Of a stretch of DNA of 20,000 nt, positions 3,075-15,489 are shown in pieces. The notes under the pieces were generated by a model, which was not told the origin of the DNA, did no database searches, and was given only the letters and a program-made list of their open reading frames with translations. Numbering within the stretch: the stretch's first letter is position 1; each line of letters opens with the position of its first letter. The DNA is from an uncultured virus (IMG/VR IMGVR_UViG_3300032093_000079) (taxonomy: Duplodnaviria > Heunggongvirae > Uroviricota > Caudoviricetes). The DNA lies in the IMG/VR virus record IMGVR_UViG_3300032093_000079; one strand, written 5' to 3'. Position numbers and translations under genes: made by a program.

Positions 3075-4211
3075 TTAAACATAGAGCAAATCTAATGGAG
3101 ATTCAGAAAAGTATTGTAAAACTGTTGCATTGAAGGAGTCGAACGTGAGGGAGCTATCGTGCTTAAGCATGAACGAATATAGGTCATTCACATCCTTAAT
3201 GAGTCTAACGTTCCGATAATCCGCATTGTACTTTTTTCGAAGATCTGCCATCATCTTATTCCATAAAAATACTCGATATCCCTTTTTAATCAAGTCGACC
3301 GATTGTGTCTTACCCGCAACATCACTATCAAATAGGATCAAAGTATTTGATTTACTTAATAGGTTTTCAAGTAACAGCTTGCTCTTGGAGATGCCAGTCG
3401 TTGCAATCGAGTTATTTAAAAACATCGCATCAATCTGGCCCTCAGTCACTAGAATGGGTTTTGAGAAATCGACATTTAGCACATTAAAATAGTTGTTGAT
3501 CGAATCGATATCAGAAACGATATCGTCTTCAACGTTTCGAACAAGACCGTTCTTCTTTAGTTCAGAGTAGTTTTTAATCAGGTATTTTGGTCCAATTACA
3601 TCTTCTCCGATTCGACGTATCGCGAATCCTAGGACCTTACCTGACTTGAGATCAATATTAAATAAATAGATCTTATCGTCTCGAGAGTCAAAGTATGCAC
3701 ACTCATTAAAAAGAGGAAGGTCTAGCAGGCTTCGATTTCGGATGAAGGAGCCGACTCTTGAGTCAGCATCAGCCTCACAGCACGGAGACAGCGAAAAACG
3801 GTCAACCATTGCATCTATTCTTAGCAGGTGGTCACCGACGTTCTTACTAATTAAAAATTCTATGAGCGAGCCTCTCTTCTTCCTAGTCGTCTGAGGAGTC
3901 CATTTTACTTCAGGAGACTTTATGTCAGGAACACCCAACGAATATTTAAGAGAAAACTTTGAAATAAACTTAGTGAGATCTACCTTTACTCCACAACCAT
4001 CATTATAACACTTATAGAAGCTACGATCAGGATATAAGTTTCCTCTCTTTTTTCGAGAATCGGATTTGGAGTCTCCGCAATATGGACAAGCAAAATTAAT
4101 TTTATCGCCAGACTCGTATACTTCTTGCTTAAATCGATCTTCGGGAAACCTCTTTTTTAAGAGATCTTTTATGAATTGGTGTATGTTGTATCCAGTCAAT
4201 AGGTTAATCAT
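3075..4211 (-). CDS. gp61: DNA primase, T4 gp61-like
   Basis: Zn-binding INFACPYCGDS...KKRG...YKCYNDGC, TOPRIM motifs LVTEGQIDAMFL and LFDSDVAGK, and C-terminal KDVND. The start overlaps the polymerase stop (ATGATTAA). Confidence 0.92.
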   Translation of the reverse strand: MINLLTGYNIHQFIKDLLKKRFPEDRFKQEVYESGDKINFACPYCGDSKSDSRKKRGNLYPDRSFYKCYNDGCGVKVDLTKFISKFSLKYSLGVPDIKSPEVKWTPQTTRKKRGSLIEFLISKNVGDHLLRIDAMVDRFSLSPCCEADADSRVGSFIRNRSLLDLPLFNECAYFDSRDDKIYLFNIDLKSGKVLGFAIRRIGEDVIGPKYLIKNYSELKKNGLVRNVEDDIVSDIDSINNYFNVLNVDFSKPILVTEGQIDAMFLNNSIATTGISKSKLLLENLLSKSNTLILFDSDVAGKTQSVDLIKKGYRVFLWNKMMADLRKKYNADYRNVRLIKDVNDLYSFMLKHDSSLTFDSFNATVLQYFSESPLDLLYV

Positions 4212-5637
4212 TTTCTTCCTCTAATTCAAGAACAGGATTATTTTTCTCCTTTTTCTTAGTCATTCTCTTCAAGTACTTATCTAGTTCCGGCTTGGGCACA
4301 ATCGTTGTGTTTAGACCATATCGTGTGATGACTCCCAAATATTCTTGAAAATCTTCTTCTGGAATTTCAGCATCGGGGTTACCGATCATCTTCCAAAATT
4401 TCTCTGGAACCTCAACGTATTCCAATGTCTCTTGATCAACGATGTATAAAGGATAAATCTCAGCATCAGTTAAAACCTTTTTGCTCTTTACTGTGACGAC
4501 ATCGACTGACCTTTTTAGATTGATATCGAGCGAACTCATCTTCATTGCAGTAAGAAGACGATTGACAGGTTCGACTATTAGCGAAAAGAATTGAGCATCG
4601 ATATCCATCAGCAGAGCGATTTCATCCGGATATGTTCCAGGAGAATATGCAAAGACGTCGTGACCTCCATCATTTGTTTCAGGATTGCAATAATAAAACT
4701 TGATCTTGTCCTTTTCTCTAATCTTAGGGTATTTTTCAACAAGTCCCGTCTTGATCAGGATGTGATTATAGATGGCGGCTGCCCTAGGGAAGATGGAAAT
4801 TCCTTTTTTAAGTTCCAATCTCTCTTCACTAGCAACGTATTTATTGTATATTCTGATATTAAAGTTAAATGCAAGATCGTCAGGATGCAGGGAAAGAGCT
4901 TCATTTTTAAGAGCAGTAAGTCGAGGCACGATATCTTTTTCAATATCAAGACGTTTACCTCGATCCATAATGAAAGACGTGAGATCGATTAGCTTTTCTC
5001 TAGCCCAGATTGGATATGATCCTTTTACTGGTTCAAGACCCTTGATTATTAGATACCTTTTTTGTTGAGGCTCAAGCTCATAGTTTGGATTGGGTTCGTA
5101 TGCGACTCGAATGGCATAGTTCTTCTTTTTAAGCCAGATTCCAGTCTCAGAAAGGTTTTCTAATTTGAACTTAAGTCGATTCTTAGTATTAAACAGACGC
5201 CCATATTTTTCAAAACAAATATCAAAGTAATTAGAGAGTCGATATCGATCGATGTTGATACATATATTCAATGCTTCGTCTTTTGTAAAGCTAGCCCCTA
5301 CTATTGAGTCAAGTGCAGAGTCAAACTGGACATAGATTGAATCAGTATCTGTGTAGATCGCAGCCTCGTCTTCTATCTTATTAATAGTATATCCATCGAT
5401 TCCTAATTTTTGATGTAACTCAGTATCAAGATGCCATTTTTCTAAAAAATAGTGATTTACTGCTTTAATTGAAAACTTAATTAGATCCTGTCCCTGTAAA
5501 GTGATGGACTGCGCAATATCTGGATTGTAAAAATAGAACCACTTGTTTCCAAAGGCACCATAAATAGAGTTAATTAAGATCTTAATCGCATTCTGTTTAA
5601 GGTCTAATTTTTTAATTTGTTTTTCTTTGTTTTCCAT
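4204..5637 (-). CDS. Family-B DNA polymerase, C-terminal subunit only (gp43B-like: fingers-palm-thumb)
   Basis: Motif B QNAIKILINSIYGAFGN lies within the first 31 aa, followed by SITLQGQ, motif C YTDTDS, KKKNYA and IKGLE. There is no exonuclease domain and no motif A (DxxSLYP). Confidence 0.92.
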   Translation of the reverse strand: MENKEKQIKKLDLKQNAIKILINSIYGAFGNKWFYFYNPDIAQSITLQGQDLIKFSIKAVNHYFLEKWHLDTELHQKLGIDGYTINKIEDEAAIYTDTDSIYVQFDSALDSIVGASFTKDEALNICINIDRYRLSNYFDICFEKYGRLFNTKNRLKFKLENLSETGIWLKKKNYAIRVAYEPNPNYELEPQQKRYLIIKGLEPVKGSYPIWAREKLIDLTSFIMDRGKRLDIEKDIVPRLTALKNEALSLHPDDLAFNFNIRIYNKYVASEERLELKKGISIFPRAAAIYNHILIKTGLVEKYPKIREKDKIKFYYCNPETNDGGHDVFAYSPGTYPDEIALLMDIDAQFFSLIVEPVNRLLTAMKMSSLDINLKRSVDVVTVKSKKVLTDAEIYPLYIVDQETLEYVEVPEKFWKMIGNPDAEIPEEDFQEYLGVITRYGLNTTIVPKPELDKYLKRMTKKKEKNNPVLELEEEND

Positions 5638-9196: not shown

Positions 9197-9631
9197 TTAT
9201 AGACCAAGAGTCTTTTCGATATCTAGCCTAGTCTTTATACCAAAGATGATATTATCGATGGTCTTGATTGATTCATTAAAAAATGAAATTTGATTTTCAA
9301 ATATTTCTAGCGATTCTTTTGTCAATGATGTTCGACCTTCAATCACCACTGATTTTTCATTGGCTTGATATCGTATCTGTAGGTTTCTAGAGATGTTCTC
9401 CATTTCAAGAGAGCGCTCGTCTCGATATTTCTTACGAAGAACCGTTATGTGTTCGAGCAGAGTATGATTATCTTCCAATAGCCTCTGTCGAAGGGAAAGC
9501 ATGTTTACTTGAGCCTCCTTTAGAGTCTTTAGGTTAGAAAGCTTTTCGATATTCTCATAAATCTCTTTGGATACTTCAGATCTACGATCTTGAAATTTTT
9601 TAGAAATCTTTGATTTTGTCTCCTCGTTCAT
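9197..9631 (-). CDS. uvsY: Recombination mediator, T4 UvsY-like
   Basis: 144-aa helical protein. The C-terminus ISFFNESIKTIDNIIFGIKTRLDIEKTLGL matches the UvsY tail pattern (LDFCxxALDAIKxRGFAIKHIxDxRxFEAG). It is adjacent to uvsW. Confidence 0.65.
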   Translation of the reverse strand: MNEETKSKISKKFQDRRSEVSKEIYENIEKLSNLKTLKEAQVNMLSLRQRLLEDNHTLLEHITVLRKKYRDERSLEMENISRNLQIRYQANEKSVVIEGRTSLTKESLEIFENQISFFNESIKTIDNIIFGIKTRLDIEKTLGL

Positions 9632-10210: not shown

Positions 10211-10801
10211 ATGAAAGATATAACTCGACTAGTAGTCTTTGATTTTGATGAGACTATGTTTAGAATGCCAGGATATACTGATAGGTTTTCAGTAGAAAGA
10301 TTACACCCTGAGCTTAATTTTCCAACCCCTTATTCGTTTTACGATCACCCCACCTCAATGGATCCAGAGATTCATAACATTCAGCTGATCGGAACTGTGT
10401 ATGAAGATTGGAAAAAGGCTTCACAGGATCCAAATACACGAACGATCTTGATAACTCACAGAACTGAAGAGCTTAGACCCTGTGCAGAAAAGCTATTGGA
10501 CAAGCATGGAATAACCTTTGATACAAGTTATTTCCTAGGTCGGCTTTGTGAAAAGATTTCTATTCTTGAAAAAGAACTTATTCGTTTACCTAACGTAAAA
10601 GATATAGTAGTATATGAAGATTCGCTAGAACAGCTAAGGAAATATCAGGAGTTCTTTTATGAATATACTCGTAAGATACACCGATCCTTTACTAGCCTAA
10701 GCGATCTAATCACCCTAGACATGCAATTTGTCGATAAGTCTAAAGTAATAGCACTTTACGATTTTAGTGCAGGTCATCCAAGAAGAATTGAATTGATATG
10801 A
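10211..10801 (+). CDS. HAD-superfamily phosphatase (capless; Swiss-army-knife RNA-repair/PNKP-phosphatase-like)
   Basis: Motif I LVVFDFDETMF, motif II ILITHR, motif III K (CEKIS), motif IV VVYEDS. Confidence 0.85.
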   Translation: MKDITRLVVFDFDETMFRMPGYTDRFSVERLHPELNFPTPYSFYDHPTSMDPEIHNIQLIGTVYEDWKKASQDPNTRTILITHRTEELRPCAEKLLDKHGITFDTSYFLGRLCEKISILEKELIRLPNVKDIVVYEDSLEQLRKYQEFFYEYTRKIHRSFTSLSDLITLDMQFVDKSKVIALYDFSAGHPRRIELI

Positions 10802-11397
10802 TAATTATGATCGAGGGCCACCGACATAGTGGCAAAACATTCCTAATCGATAGGTTCTTTGAACAGAACACTAATCCAAATGTTCACTATTATAAGTTTC
10901 AATTTGCTAAGCATATCGATGATCTTGGAATGCGAGATCAGGAATCTGGCCCAGGAGTACACTATTTTAGCATTGCAAATGTGCTTACCATTCTTGAGCT
11001 AAATGAGACTTTGCTGAAGGATCACATCTTAATCTTTGATAGATGCATATTTTCAGCATACGTCTGGTCGATATACCGAGAAAGAATGAATCAATTTAGA
11101 TTGCTTAGCGAGTTTCAAAAGATCTTGATCAGCAATCTTTATCAAAATAGTAAAATCCTATATGTTGAACGCGATGAGGATATTGAAATTACTAAAAGGG
11201 ACAAGGACTATTTTGGTAACTTTGAAAATGTAAATCGTGAAAAGGAACTTTTTGAGAGAATATTCTCAGAATTTAGATATGAGATCTCAGATTCAAGCAG
11301 AAATAACGATTTTGTAAGGGTGATAAATCACTTTAACAATGAAAGCAGTAATGAATTCAATCAAATACTAAGCAGTCTAATAAATAACGGGAAATAA
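10798..11397 (+). CDS. P-loop nucleotide kinase (thymidylate/dNMP kinase-like)
   Basis: MIIMIEGHRHSGKT and IFDRCIFSAYVW (DR motif of the TMPK/dNK class). ATGA overlap with the HAD gene. Confidence 0.8.
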   Translation: MIIMIEGHRHSGKTFLIDRFFEQNTNPNVHYYKFQFAKHIDDLGMRDQESGPGVHYFSIANVLTILELNETLLKDHILIFDRCIFSAYVWSIYRERMNQFRLLSEFQKILISNLYQNSKILYVERDEDIEITKRDKDYFGNFENVNREKELFERIFSEFRYEISDSSRNNDFVRVINHFNNESSNEFNQILSSLINNGK

Positions 11398-11402
11398 TCT
11401 TA

Positions 11403-11416
11403 ATAAATAATAAAAA
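11403..11416 (+). promoter_or_regulatory. Putative late promoter ATAAATAATAAAAA
   Basis: Exact 14-mer, 10 nt upstream of ATG 11427. Confidence 0.7.
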
Positions 11417-11426
11417 ATATTTTAGG

Positions 11427-11990
11427 ATGGCTACCAAATATACACTAGGCTATTTACAATACATTAAGGAAGCAGAAGAGGCTGAGGCGAATTCTCCGTT
11501 AAAGGGATATCCTTCAGATCAGTTAATCACTAGGATCGGAGAACTAATGGAAGTTCTTTCAGATCAAGTAAGATTTGGAGTTCCTTCTGATAACTTAGGT
11601 CGAGCAACAACATACAGAGATGCAAACGGAGCCATTCAAAGAATTAAGGATATTGTGCACTATTATAATAGTAAAAACGAGCAGGTTAGGTTCTATTGCT
11701 GGTCCCTAAGTTATGGCGGAACTTGGAAAGCGGCTAAAAACTTAAGACAAAAGATAGAGGATGCCGGAGGATTCGGAGAAGAGATGAATAACGTTAATTT
11801 GAAAAAAGTTGTCGAATATTTCACGGCTAACCCAGAGGATTCAGATAACTTGAGAAGCATCTCGATTAGTATCGATTCAATAAGCATTAGAAAAGCGATG
11901 TCTGCTCCAAAACCAGAAGAAAAGCCTGCTGAGTCCACTAGGGAAGCGTCAGCTGAAGAAAAACCAGGATCATCGCAAGTTGAAGTATAA
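11427..11990 (+). CDS. Hypothetical protein; candidate internal head protein
   Basis: 187 aa. N-terminus MATKYTLGYLQYIKEAEE (YxxYIxE) and a low-complexity E/K/P/A tail. Confidence 0.75.
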   Translation: MATKYTLGYLQYIKEAEEAEANSPLKGYPSDQLITRIGELMEVLSDQVRFGVPSDNLGRATTYRDANGAIQRIKDIVHYYNSKNEQVRFYCWSLSYGGTWKAAKNLRQKIEDAGGFGEEMNNVNLKKVVEYFTANPEDSDNLRSISISIDSISIRKAMSAPKPEEKPAESTREASAEEKPGSSQVEV

Positions 11991-12007: not shown

Positions 12008-13882
12008 ATGGCAGGAATAAACAATTTAAAGGAGATCTATGAAAAAAGGGGAGAAGACTTTTTAAATGGATTGCTTAACGGTTACGTTATAATCAACGAA
12101 AAAATGGACGGTGCGTTCTTTGGTCTAAAAAAGACGACGGACGATCAGTTTAAGTACTTTAAAAAATCAGGTGAAATAACTTACGTTGATCAGGTCCTAA
12201 TGAAATACTACAACCCTGCAATAAATCACTTTCAAAGATTAGCCATTGAAAAGAGACAGAGGATCCCAGCGAACTTCTTTTTTGGATTTGAATATTTTAC
12301 AAAGAGCGACACTCAATCCAGTAGGAGGGCAGAATTACCTAAAAATAACCTGATGCTTTCTTACATTCATAGATTAGGAGAGGACGGCAAGATCGAGGAA
12401 ACCCTCCAATCTAAGGAGCAATTATCCAGATGGGCAAATTACTTGGAAGTTGAGTCGCCGCCGATCATTTTTGAGGGCAAGCTTGATGATGAACAGAAAA
12501 GCAAGATACTTGAGTTCATATACACAGAAAAAAAAGAGCTTGATGAAAAGTTTAAGACCACTAGCTTTACTAAATACATAATCTCAACCTTGTGTCCGGA
12601 AGAAAAGAATGAGTTTTCGGATAGGGAGCTCGAAACAATCGTTTTTAGATTTTATCGAGATGATTCTGAGAATGAAGCCTTTTTAGCTAAGCTGGTCGAT
12701 CCTATTTTTCAAAACAGATCACAGGAAGATAAACCCAAATCTACTAACACTCAAGATTATATTTGGCTGATCGTCATTGACTTGATGAATCACTTTGAAA
12801 TGTACGACATTGACGATATACGTAAAATGGTGCCGCAGTCCGACTCGTACGAGGAAAAGTACATTAGCCTAATCAATAGGATGTTTAAGGACTTTCTTCA
12901 GGAATATTCAGAAAAGTACGATGGTCTTGAACTAGAGATACCGGAATATTTAAAAAGACCTGAATTTGAGCTTGATGTGAATTTAGTGGGCGATCCTGAG
13001 GTAGTAAATCTGATCTCAAAAAACGCGACGAACTTGGAGATCTATAAGGTTATTCTTAATTTCTTTAGAAAGGTTAGGAAAAAATCTAGCGCGGGTTTCT
13101 TTACTCCGGACATGATCTCACAGCTTAACCTGATCGTGCAAAAGATCAAGAACATCATCATGGGAGATGCGGTATACGAAGGGCTCTTTCCAAGTTTTGG
13201 AGAGTTTATCGGAGCGCCCAATGATTATATGGCAATGAGCGAGGTAGAGCATGCCAAGAATATCGGTGAAAAGAACGAACCTCAAAAGGTGAACATTTTA
13301 ATCGGTCGATTTCAGCCGATCACCATGGGTCACATTAAAGCCGCAAAGGCATTAAAAGAAAAGAACGGAAACAAGACAGTTTTTATTTCTGTCAAGGGAG
13401 AGATCCCAAGTAAAAAATCTCCATTTTCACTAGAAACGACTCAATTGCTCCTAAATAAGACTCAACAGGAATATCCTGAACTTATTGCTAGCACAATAAT
13501 CGTCCCTAACGGGCAGATTACTGAAATAATAAAGGAACTACGACCTGAGTATGAACCGATCCTGTGGGGAACGACTGATCGTAGAATAAAGGATTATGCT
13601 ATCCAGTTTGATTATATCAAGAAGAGGGACATTCCAATAAGAATATCGAAAGAATTTAAACTAGTTGAGATTCCCAGCTTTGTGAAATCTGAGGAGATGA
13701 TTGAGCTAATTCGATCCTCTAACTTTGAAGAATTTAAAAAGCTTACCCCTTCATCAGTTTCATCTGAATTTTTTAATCTGCAAAGGGAAGTAGGTCGATC
13801 AATCGACTTAAATGAGGCAAATAGCGACATTAGATTGCTTGAACCTGATACAAAGGACGATACTGAAGAGGAGATAGTCTAA
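12008..13882 (+). CDS. Fusion protein: RNA-ligase-like (Rnl2-type) adenylyltransferase domain + helical region + HIGH-superfamily cytidylyltransferase/NMNAT-like domain
   Basis: Ligase motifs I INEKMDG, III FGFEY, SPPIIFEG, IV ELETIVFR and V FLAKLVD. C-terminal ILIGRFQPITMGH, KSPFS and WGTTDRR. Confidence 0.8.
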   Translation: MAGINNLKEIYEKRGEDFLNGLLNGYVIINEKMDGAFFGLKKTTDDQFKYFKKSGEITYVDQVLMKYYNPAINHFQRLAIEKRQRIPANFFFGFEYFTKSDTQSSRRAELPKNNLMLSYIHRLGEDGKIEETLQSKEQLSRWANYLEVESPPIIFEGKLDDEQKSKILEFIYTEKKELDEKFKTTSFTKYIISTLCPEEKNEFSDRELETIVFRFYRDDSENEAFLAKLVDPIFQNRSQEDKPKSTNTQDYIWLIVIDLMNHFEMYDIDDIRKMVPQSDSYEEKYISLINRMFKDFLQEYSEKYDGLELEIPEYLKRPEFELDVNLVGDPEVVNLISKNATNLEIYKVILNFFRKVRKKSSAGFFTPDMISQLNLIVQKIKNIIMGDAVYEGLFPSFGEFIGAPNDYMAMSEVEHAKNIGEKNEPQKVNILIGRFQPITMGHIKAAKALKEKNGNKTVFISVKGEIPSKKSPFSLETTQLLLNKTQQEYPELIASTIIVPNGQITEIIKELRPEYEPILWGTTDRRIKDYAIQFDYIKKRDIPIRISKEFKLVEIPSFVKSEEMIELIRSSNFEEFKKLTPSSVSSEFFNLQREVGRSIDLNEANSDIRLLEPDTKDDTEEEIV

Positions 13883-13929: not shown

Positions 13930-15489
13930 ATGAGATTTAACGATCTAGACGAATCTGATAAACTTTACATATGCGAGACTTATTATAACAAAGAACTTTC
14001 CTGGGATAAACGATTGGACACGCTATCCGAAAGGTTTGACTGTTCTAGAAGAACCATTGGAACATGGGTCGCTCGACTTAACTTAACTGAAAACTCACAG
14101 GAAGACTCGCCTCAACTAAAGATAGCTCAAGCCAAGGAGCACAATAAAAAGACAAAACGTTTTATTATAACTTGGGCGCAAAACAACACGCCAGTCCATC
14201 CAGATTTTATGAATAACGTGAAGGCATACGCCGACTTTATCAATGCAGATATTCACGTAATTGCAGGTAGGTATAAGAACCCGACCAGCGTTTGGACAAA
14301 CAACCAAGAATACGAAGAAAGGTGGGCGGATGAGGTCTTGGAATATCTAGACGCGAATCGTCACGACATTCACAAATACGTATCGATCATGTCAGACGTA
14401 AAGATCCAGCCTACTGCGGTCAATCCAATGACCGGCATGGAAGGATTGAGCGGAATAAACTCATGCATATTTGGCTCGCCTAAAGTGCAAATGGAGATGA
14501 TTCCGGTGCTTGAAACCAATTCTCCAAAGATGATGGTAACGACCGGTGCGTGCACAATCAAAAACTATACTGATTCAAAATCGGGTAAAAAGGGAGAATT
14601 TCATCACACCCTAGGTTTTGTGATCGTCGAGATCAAAAACAATGAGATCTTTTTTATGAGACAGGTGACTGCGACCGATCAGGGCAGTTTCACTGATCTT
14701 TTTTATCGAGTTGAAAACGAGGAGGTCACACGAATCAATAGGATTTCAGCTATAGTCTTTGGTGACTTGCACATAGGTAGCCATGATAAAAAGGTGGTCA
14801 ATAAGACCTTGGAGCTGATGGATGAGTTGCATCCTGATCACGTGATCCTTCACGACGTCTTTGATGGAAAATCAATCAGTCACCATGAAGAAAAAGACCC
14901 GTTTCTACAGTATCAAAAGGAACTAGAGGGCACAAATTCACTAAGACGTGAGATAGATGAGATGCTCTCATGCCTAGCAGATTTTGAAGAATATAATACT
15001 GTGATCGTAAGGAGCAATCACGATGATTTTGTGGATCGTTGGTTAAAGAATACTGATTGGCGAAAGACTGTCACTCCCAAAAACTCACTAGAGTACATGC
15101 ACTACTCAGCGGCGATACTAAGCGGTGAGGCACCGAACGGTGTCATTCCATGGGTGATAAATAAACAATATCCTCACTTTATAACTTTAGGCAGAAGCGA
15201 CAGTTACATAGTTAATGGATGGGAATTGGGTCAACATGGAGACATTGGTTCAAATGGTAGTCGAGGATCGCTACAACAGTTTAGAAAGCTAAACAATAAG
15301 ATCGTAGTCGGCCACTATCATTCACCAGGAAGAAAGGATGGAGCTCTGGCAGTCGGAACCTCAACTCACCTAAGAGTAGGCTACAACATAGGAGCTAGCG
15401 CATGGTTACAGTCTCACGTAATCATTCATGAGGACTCAAAAGCTCAACACATTAGCTTTATAAAGGGAGAATACACGACCTTAAAATAA
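13930..15489 (+). CDS. T5 A1-like protein: N-terminal HTH-like segment + calcineurin-like metallophosphoesterase/nuclease
   Basis: Metallophosphoesterase motifs GDLH, HDVFD, SNHD, HGD and GHYHS. Blocks KRFIITWAQNNT, QPTAVNPMTG, TTGACTIKNY..K.GKKGEFHH.LG..IVE, NGSRGS and GYNIGASAWLQSH match T5 A1 as I recall it. HTH-like LSERFDCSRRTIGTW. Confidence 0.85.
   Translation: MRFNDLDESDKLYICETYYNKELSWDKRLDTLSERFDCSRRTIGTWVARLNLTENSQEDSPQLKIAQAKEHNKKTKRFIITWAQNNTPVHPDFMNNVKAYADFINADIHVIAGRYKNPTSVWTNNQEYEERWADEVLEYLDANRHDIHKYVSIMSDVKIQPTAVNPMTGMEGLSGINSCIFGSPKVQMEMIPVLETNSPKMMVTTGACTIKNYTDSKSGKKGEFHHTLGFVIVEIKNNEIFFMRQVTATDQGSFTDLFYRVENEEVTRINRISAIVFGDLHIGSHDKKVVNKTLELMDELHPDHVILHDVFDGKSISHHEEKDPFLQYQKELEGTNSLRREIDEMLSCLADFEEYNTVIVRSNHDDFVDRWLKNTDWRKTVTPKNSLEYMHYSAAILSGEAPNGVIPWVINKQYPHFITLGRSDSYIVNGWELGQHGDIGSNGSRGSLQQFRKLNNKIVVGHYHSPGRKDGALAVGTSTHLRVGYNIGASAWLQSHVIIHEDSKAQHISFIKGEYTTLK

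Follow-up and report, generated by a model that had tools for sequence, protein, structure and literature searches.

A viral protein joining an Rnl2-like ligase fold to a HIGH-type nucleotidyltransferase domain: a candidate RNA repair enzyme of T4-like phages

Why would a large phage carry two unrelated nucleotidyl-transfer folds in a single polypeptide, and which of the two chemistries, if either, would it use? RNA ligases and NMNAT-type enzymes are each well studied. The question of their union is raised by a stretch of 20,000 nucleotides from an uncultured virus of the Caudoviricetes (IMG/VR record IMGVR_UViG_3300032093_000079), hereafter the window, which is part of a virus record of 125,167 bases judged to be about 50% complete. 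On its plus strand, at 12008..13882, lies an open reading frame (ORF) of 624 amino acids (aa) with three parts, namely a ligase-like domain, a helical module and a HIGH nucleotidyltransferase domain; this protein is referred to below as the fusion, and the copy in the window as the query. A gp20-type portal, a head-closure protein, a primase, the C-terminal half of a family-B DNA polymerase, PhoH and a UvsW-type helicase, as recognized in sequence searches, mark the source phage as T4-like. An initial annotation of this DNA knew of no demonstrated function for such a fusion, and none was found in the literature searched; nor is the fusion described in the available parts of PMC7824862 and PMC9503650, which treat phage RNA ligases and HIGH-type NMNATs separately. 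Our preference, which is tentative and stops a little short of an even chance, is that the fusion is an active Rnl2-like RNA ligase used for RNA repair, with an attached, partly degenerate HIGH domain that binds nucleotide.

Two nucleotidyl-transfer folds in one protein

Translation reproduced the 624-aa ORF and every motif that the initial annotation had named, each at the coordinates claimed for it. A chance reading frame is excluded, since 392 proteins match the fusion at E≤1e-3 (7999 candidates scored), as do 548 clusters in a family scan of 1.84 billion cluster representatives (clusters at 50% identity), 329 of them at E≤1e-10 and 160 at E≤1e-30. One sub-branch alone accounts for more than 426 viral contigs, and identical or near-identical fusion proteins are encoded on contigs that reach about 250-275 kb in length. 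Of the 150 listed representatives, most span both domains; some carry about 400 extra C-terminal residues without a Pfam match, and others consist only of an N-terminal module of about 400 aa. The names that members bear at their sources are 'phosphopantetheine adenylyltransferase', 'cytidyltransferase-like' and 'hypothetical'. Among 50,697 phage records the query matches six, all of them uncultured huge phages and one over both domains, and these records yielded no cultured relative of the ligase part. A second family member also matches stand-alone HIGH proteins of Xanthomonas and Stenotrophomonas phages, over the HIGH part only.

The N-terminal part (residues 1-240; 12008..12727, +) was assigned to the covalent nucleotidyltransferase, or ligase, fold with the use of Pfam, VIA and Foldseek, and the predicted structure is closest to Rnl2-type RNA ligases, with T4 Rnl2 the nearest relative. 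The AlphaFold2 model of the whole protein has a mean predicted local distance difference test score (pLDDT) of 80 and a predicted template-modelling score (pTM) of 0.54, and a separate model of residues 1-400 (pLDDT 88.2, pTM 0.82) was compared with 48,161 PDB representatives by VIA, without Foldseek. The best match to this second model was T4 Rnl2 (1s68; Z 10.8, root-mean-square deviation (rmsd) 3.6, 186 aa aligned, model residues 1-238), followed by NgrRnl (Z 10.5), the Trl1 ligase (10.4), REL1 (8.9) and T4 Rnl1 (8.6), with DNA ligases (Z 6-8) and capping enzymes (Z 5-7) in lower rows. Ranks 1-45 are all ligase or capping entries, except for one pox processivity complex and three snurportin entries of the same fold. 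With the whole model, Foldseek placed full-length T4 Rnl2 (2hvq) first (E 1.4e-7) and then the fungal Trl1 ligase and REL1, and in the atlas, residues 1-400 fall among viral RNA_ligase clusters. Residues 1-240 thus do model as a ligase fold, as had been predicted from their motifs.

Motif I is represented by EKMDG (residues 31-35; 12098..12112, +), with K32 as the lysine predicted to accept AMP. FGFEY (residues 92-96, E95; 12281..12295, +), ETIVFR (residues 209-214, E209; 12632..12649, +) and AKLVD (residues 227-231, K228; 12686..12700, +) are candidates for motifs III, IV and V, respectively. Like T4 Rnl2 (gene 24.1/rnlB) and its kin REL1, NgrRnl and DraRnl, the fusion combines the nucleotidyltransferase fold with a KxDG motif I and candidates for motifs III, IV and V, and like T4 Rnl2 it has a helical region after the catalytic domain and no OB domain; it differs from T4 Rnl2 in that the similarity is marginal (12-14% identity), in having one lysine in motif V (AKLVD) and in its extra C-terminal HIGH nucleotidyltransferase. 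This first part would be an ATP-dependent polynucleotide ligase of the Rnl2 type, with RNA as the most likely substrate; Lys32 would be adenylylated before breaks bearing 3'-OH and 5'-phosphate ends are sealed. The role of replicative DNA ligase was considered and rejected, as separate ATP-dependent DNA ligases of about 440-450 aa are encoded in three of the five records searched, one of which belongs to a relative whose fusion is 79% identical. No separate ATP-dependent DNA ligase was found in the roughly half-complete 125-kb record, and no NAD-dependent ligase in any of the five.

The long helical stretch that had been proposed to lie between the two enzyme parts is borne out by the models, which are helical over residues 250-385. 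It belongs to an all-helical module specific to the family (residues 250-390; 12755..13177, +), delimited on the AlphaFold2 models, which may be positioned like the substrate-binding C-domain of Rnl2. Among PDB representatives, VIA found no separate solved counterpart of residues 250-390 above Z 3.8; its alignment to 2hvq covers only residues 1-237, that of Foldseek runs over 377 columns but at an rmsd of 16.7, and Pfam T4_Rnl2_C is not called on the fusion protein. A low-confidence linker (residues 391-423; 13178..13276, +; pLDDT <50 for 397-421) leads from this module to the HIGH domain, and the protein ends in a disordered acidic tail (residues 601-624, LNE...LLE...TEEEIV; 13808..13879, +; pLDDT <50 for 607-624). 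At least six of the last 20 residues are D or E in 100 of 113 close relatives, whose tails share a pattern of hydrophobic-x-E-A, then D-x-R-[LF]-x-E, then an acidic run with a hydrophobic end. Such a tail could be a partner-binding tip.

The third part (residues 424-600; 13277..13807, +) is a HIGH (Rossmann-like) nucleotidyltransferase of the NMNAT/NadD/PPAT type. Pfam CTP_transf_like (PF01467) matches residues 430-514 with 27.4 bits against a cut-off of 21, and likewise matches 26 of 40 Pfam-scanned relatives; a profile of 36 family members, searched against the PDB, retrieves PPAT (4.5e-5) and the M. jannaschii NMNAT MJ0541 (8.1e-5). In VIA, the closest structure to residues 424-600 is the archaeal NMNAT 1m8f (Z 16.3, rmsd 2.4, 152 of 167 residues), followed by NadD (16.1) and PPAT (about 14-15), and PPAT and NMNAT also form the second set of Foldseek matches for the whole model. 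Since Pfam and the fold searches back both domain calls, the fusion of two unrelated nucleotidyl-transfer folds is real, the N-terminal one Rnl2-like and the C-terminal one NMNAT/PPAT-like, as the initial annotation had held.

The (H/T)xGH nucleotide-binding motif is intact in GRFQPITMGH (residues 433-442; 13304..13333, +). The distal SxT-type motif had been described as degenerate, and the alignment agrees: the query has VKSEEMI (13682..13702, +; KSEEM = residues 560-564) in place of the ISATKVR of its relatives, so that K560, E562 and I565 stand for the S, T and R of ISxTxxR. In NMNAT, ISxTxxR holds the beta and gamma phosphates. Because GxFxPxTxGH is kept and ISxTxxR is lost, the HIGH domain in the query's clade probably binds nucleotide, and its catalysis may be poor or absent. 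The archaeal NMNATs (M. thermoautotrophicum 1m8f/1ej2; MJ0541 1f9a) and NadM, NadR, NadD and PPAT share the fold across the whole domain together with GRFQPxTxGH, while ISATKVR is present in many family members and absent from the query, whose HIGH domain, unlike theirs, sits behind a fused ligase.

This resemblance invites another reading, in which the HIGH domain would be a phage NMN adenylyltransferase that rebuilds NAD+ together with the phage's Nampt, perhaps to counter defences that deplete NAD, and the ligase part would be an add-on or an NAD+ user. The 125-kb record does encode a Nampt of 501 aa (NAMPT_N + NAPRTase, E 4.3e-38), just downstream of the end of a PRTase/PRPP-synthetase-like ORF and a nucleoside 2-deoxyribosyltransferase-like gene, and the three (locus L151, 111673-115470) have the look of a cluster for NAD+ salvage. 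CTP_transf_like matches nothing in that record other than the fusion, whose top structural matches in this domain are NMNAT and NadD (Z 16.1-16.3). The kinase encoded close by, described below, weakly matches AAA_28, a family that we take to hold the NadR riboside-kinase domain. A precedent exists in phage NadV, which, according to the available parts of PMC9503650 and PMC7824862, works with a HIGH-type NadM or NadR. Nevertheless, we consider a role in NAD+ salvage unlikely: ISxTxxR is lost in the query's clade, the NCBIfam models for NMNAT, NadD and PPAT all score far under their cut-offs (NF002243 19.5 against 127; TIGR01527 15.6 against 181.2), and Nampt occurs in only one of five other large fusion-bearing records and was not found in the one that is 92% complete. 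Moreover, the record is only about half complete, and the remainder of the genome could hold a NadM or NadR gene. The coupling of dinucleotide synthesis to RNA repair, RNA capping or protein nucleotidylylation, as put forward in the initial annotation, is speculation.

Gene neighbourhood and expression

The preferred reading of the fusion as an RNA repair ligase draws on its neighbours as well as on its fold. Upstream on the same strand lie a HAD phosphatase with a DxDxT motif (10211..10801, +; Pfam HAD_SAK_1, 31.8 bits against a cut-off of 25.6), in which D11, D13 and T15 are invariant among 17 sequences, and a P-loop kinase (10798..11397, +; Walker A GHRHSGKT), whose start overlaps the HAD stop codon. 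These are followed by orf187 (187 aa; 11427..11990, +), which stops at 11990 and leaves, as had been noted earlier, a gap of 17 nt before the fusion. This small gene adjoins the fusion throughout the query's lineage and has no match in any family library or in the PDB by sequence or profile searches. All 25 close loci share the order HAD, kinase, orf187, fusion, metallophosphoesterase, and the first four genes are still in this order where the fusion has only about 40% identity (loci L133-L136). When compared with cultured phages by tblastn, the kinase had no match and the HAD gene one, to an uncultured phage. The metallophosphoesterase (519 aa; 13930-15489, +) lies directly downstream of the fusion, a place that it holds in 46 loci, and matches PHROG 1745 'DNA transfer protein' (E 2.3e-152).

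The co-directional HAD phosphatase, kinase and fusion could together make up a heal-and-seal kit for RNA, such as tRNA cut by host defence nucleases, analogous to T4 Pnkp with RNA ligase. This reading of the block is plausible, although not secured. A DxDxT HAD phosphatase is likewise grouped with a P-loop kinase and a ligase in the tRNA repair pair of T4 (Pnkp and Rnl1) and in the fungal Trl1/'Swiss Army Knife' proteins. The Pfam family that the HAD gene matches takes its name from the latter repair proteins, and the gene also matches, weakly, a PHROG named polynucleotide kinase (E 1.6e-4). The window differs from them in having three separate genes, in another order and with an extra gene of unknown family between, and its kinase resembles nucleoside and nucleotide kinases, not Pnk.

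Altogether 142 fusion loci were compared, which are related to one another, and the counts are not independent events. They fall into two mutually exclusive contexts: in 57, including the window's lineage, the upstream neighbour is the HAD gene and/or the kinase and/or orf187 (orf187 itself occurs in 52 of the 142), in 73 a second ligase-like gene is present, and 12 show neither. The latter gene encodes 427 aa directly upstream of the fusion (loci L028-L107; for example, L057:6595-7878, +), and its consensus EKTDGQN, EGLVFK and KLTG resembles ligase motifs I, IV and V; it has no Pfam, PHROG, NCBIfam or PDB match and no copy in the 125-kb record. Judged from these motifs, it appears to encode a second ligase-like enzyme, one that is intact and accompanies the fusion. 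The two contexts differ in what the fusion itself preserves. ISxTxxR is intact in 5 of 57 fusions of the HAD/kinase/orf187 context against 72 of 73 in the second-ligase context, whereas all four ligase residues (equivalents of K32, E95, E209 and K228) are present in 41 of 57 against 22 of 73. At motif I, the second-ligase context has K in 62 loci and Q, N or M in 10, with one not aligned.

Several further features of the surroundings were recorded. The UvsW helicase lies 3-5 kb from the fusion in 120 of the 142 loci. An ORF of 144 aa (window 9197-9631, -) adjoins the UvsW-type helicase and stays with it in 101 of the 142; it is probably UvsY, and the S-SZBM1 gene in the same position is annotated UvsY. 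The family-B DNA polymerase is split, only its C-terminal half being present (window 4204-5637, -; positions 500-841 of 856 in PHROG 262); the exonuclease half is not adjacent in the window, and relatives encode it as a separate gene of 467 aa (L035:13153-14556). In seven loci a DUF2828/DUF7788 protein (PHROG 850 'RNA-binding protein') is encoded about 4.5 kb downstream of the fusion (for example, L106:13337-14764).

The initial annotation had proposed that the fusion is expressed late, behind a gene with a late-type motif. Two ATAAATA motifs (11380 and 11403; 11380..11409, +) do precede orf187, although they are not the full T4 late box TATAAATA, which has no match in the window. ATAAATA occurs 17 times in the window against 7.7 expected, a number reached in one of 200 shuffles, and nine of these copies are no more than 50 nt (16-47 nt) upstream of seven ORF starts on the correct strand; examples are found at 2669, 3068, 7168, 10190, 11403, 15683 and 17671. 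The motif thus probably marks the late promoters of the source phage. There is no ATAAATA directly ahead of 12008 and no terminator-like site between orf187 and the fusion; as ATAAATA precedes orf187 and no such site follows it, co-transcription of the fusion with orf187 from a late-type promoter is a fair inference, and read-through from the HAD-kinase pair is possible. Late expression is accordingly a plausible proposal in view of the upstream ATAAATA.

Active-site variation across the family

For a census of the active sites, 151 sequences (the query and the 150 listed representatives) were aligned to the family hidden Markov model (HMM). The motif I lysine is found in 102 of 133 filled columns, the others having Q (13), N (10), D (2), M (2) and L, P, I and R (1 each), and the K228 position is Lys in 124 of 137. 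The full GxFxPx[HT]xGH occurs in 58 of 109 representatives and its last His in 95 of 109. When 93 full-length representatives are sorted by ligase lysine, HIGH and ISxTxxR, 27 have all three, 28 have only the lysine, 10 have the lysine and HIGH without ISxTxxR (the query's class), nine have HIGH and ISxTxxR without the lysine, three have the lysine and ISxTxxR without HIGH, and one has HIGH only. On a FastTree phylogeny of these 93, built with the motif columns left out, the state of HIGH changed at least 13 times and that of ISxTxxR at least nine times; no correlation was detected between changes in the lysine and ISxTxxR states, with too few informative pairs. Among 119 close relatives of the query, EK is found at motif I in at least 98, EN or EQ in at least 11, and FGFEY in 110; all listed variants have the K228 motif (119/119), all listed variants of the HIGH motif are canonical (80/119), and (F/Y)VKSE(E/D) substitutes for ISxT in all listed motif variants.

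A number of results, brought together here, weigh against an active ligase that repairs RNA. Pfam RNA_ligase (PF09414) aligns with residues 26-181 of the query at only 23.2 bits (E 8.5e-5), below its cut-off of 27; it matches eight of 40 Pfam-scanned relatives at E≤1e-3, and because four of these pass the cut-off (P0121, P0133, P0140 and P0148, with P0139 at exactly 27.0), the link holds for the family as a whole and not for the query alone. Searches of the PDB by protein sequence and by the 36-member family profile (32 matches) retrieved a ligase in neither case, and in an hhalign comparison of the family with T4 RnlB, EKMDG falls on EKIHG in a weak match (E 0.031, probability 1.6%). Within the family, the ligase lysine is absent from 31 of 133 representatives, its state changed at least 10 times on the tree, and 15 of the 93 full-length members have neither the lysine nor HIGH nor ISxTxxR; since the lysine has been lost repeatedly and these 15 lack all three motif sets, the common function of the family may not need ligase chemistry. 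In the second-ligase context the fusion has entirely different neighbours. As for the presumed partners, the kinase profile retrieves deoxynucleoside kinase (best E 4.4e-4) and thymidylate kinase from the PDB, with polynucleotide kinase absent at E≤1, the 310 kinase relatives all belong to the query's phage lineage and are in many cases auto-named thymidylate kinase, and the HAD profile search did not find the Pnkp phosphatase. Because these profiles find neither Pnk nor the Pnkp phosphatase, the HAD and kinase genes could simply serve ordinary nucleotide metabolism. Neither a tRNA gene nor RlaP is present in the 125-kb record, which is about 50% complete, RtcB not having been searched for.

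These losses also bear on a reading in which the fusion is mainly non-catalytic, serving as a scaffold, a nucleic-acid binder or an assembly factor, with the catalytic motifs of the query as relics. T4 Rnl1 (gp63) itself doubles as a tail-fibre attachment factor. The 15 representatives without any of the three motif sets have stayed full length, only 27 keep all three, and all three states have changed many times; furthermore, the gene lies between recombination genes (UvsW and the probable UvsY) and late-motif genes, with a baseplate-like ORF at the window end. In the query's own clade, however, the ligase motif residues are well conserved, as FGFEY, the K228 motif and EK at motif I all attest, which argues for selection on catalysis there, and the HIGH motif is canonical in all variants listed. 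A mainly non-catalytic role is quite unlikely in our judgement.

Virion proteins and cyanophage counterparts

Another proposal places the fusion in the virion, as a packaged and injected enzyme that is trimmed by the prohead protease at L-x-E sites. Consistent with this are the late-type ATAAATA before the probably co-transcribed orf187, and the recurrence in close relatives of a hydrophobic-x-E ahead of an acidic tail; of 113 such relatives, 79 have [LI]xE and 60 have [LIVM]NE within their last 45 residues. In addition, the 30 proteins that mass spectrometry detected in S-SZBM1 virions include a 'cytidylyltransferase' (S-SZBM1_140) and its neighbour S-SZBM1_139, and the function of this cyanophage protein 'remains unclear', as stated in the part of PMC9146016 available. 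The LNE of the query (residues 601-603) does stand just before the acidic tail, as the initial annotation had noted, but [LI]xE occurs 17 times in the protein and therefore carries little information, and only eight of the 113 relatives have the exact LNE in their last 45 residues. A capsid-targeting leader at the N-terminus was rejected as well: residues 1-24 are part of the modelled fold, residue 1 aligns to Rnl2 residue 6, and with the N-terminus integral to a confidently modelled ligase fold there is no removable targeting leader. The cyanophage protein, moreover, shares one domain only with the fusion and comes from a different genomic context. Cleavage at L-N-E and packaging are thus left without support, and we hold a packaged, protease-trimmed enzyme to be decidedly improbable.

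The cyanophage protein nonetheless leads to a wider comparison. S-SZBM1_140 is remotely related to the HIGH domain alone (hhalign probability 85.6%, E 5.5e-6), and the gene just upstream of it, S-SZBM1_141 (L146:5478-6671), belongs to Pfam DUF6267, a family found in 465 phage records, mostly of cyanophages, and often adjoining a 'cytidyltransferase'. In S-PM2, the single gene d138 of 591 aa (L147:2992-4767) has DUF6267 followed by the HIGH domain. The DUF6267 alignment, including L148-L150, contains KWDG, PEGYV and K(L/I)VDR, which, read by eye, look like ligase motifs I, IV and V, and DUF6267 may be an unrecognized ligase-like family. The cyanomyovirus pair T4-GC71 (DUF6267, a cyanophage core gene) and T4-GC190 'cytidyltransferase' has a HIGH relative (hhalign probability 92%, E 6.6e-7) that comes directly after, or is fused to, a protein of about 400 aa with ligase-like motifs, in the same domain order as the fusion, whereas its genomic neighbourhood, with MazG and a primase-helicase, is different. 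At the profile level, DUF6267 matched neither the N-terminal module of the fusion nor the PDB, and its similarity to the 427-aa protein is not significant (E 0.11). The DUF6267 HMM found no match in the window's genome, but the control search matched nothing anywhere, and genes 139, 141 and 142 of S-SZBM1 gave no significant relative of the ligase module. To judge from motifs and gene order, there seem to be at least two unrelated forms in which a ligase-like protein is paired with an NMNAT-like one.

Such recurrence could mean that the ligase-fold and HIGH enzymes form an obligate two-step pathway, long kept in T4-like aquatic phages, in which the HIGH enzyme would attach AMP to the 5'-phosphate of a nucleic acid, giving AppRNA, or make an NAD-like cap or dinucleotide, and the ligase partner would use the product. 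To our knowledge, HIGH enzymes always adenylylate a phosphate monoester. The pairing takes the form of a fusion in the present family, of an apparent fusion to a different ligase-like family in S-PM2, of adjacent genes in cyanophages and of a second ligase-like gene in 73 loci, and a two-step pathway would explain how the fusion could outlast at least 10 losses of the lysine. If true, it would amount to ligation or end-modification chemistry without the classical lysine-AMP step. Studies of DraRnl, in the part of PMC1807946 available, indicate that the steps of ligation are separable, several mutants without self-adenylylation still sealing a pre-adenylylated nick, and that this sealing still requires the glutamates of motifs III and IV. 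In the alignment census, however, many lysine-less members are also without the motif III glutamate; because this residue is needed for sealing, the case for a two-step pathway is weakened, and we rate it as very improbable.

The fusion family abounds among large uncultured phages from lakes and seas. If its members are RNA repair enzymes, as we tentatively prefer to think, they would represent a new ligase clade and a new layout of the repair kit in phage counter-defence. Either active site has been lost here and there across the family, in a patchwork that constitutes a natural experiment on which chemistry matters, and, together with the DUF6267/cytidyltransferase pair of cyanophages, the fusion points to a conserved and so far unexplained link between the ligase fold and the HIGH fold.

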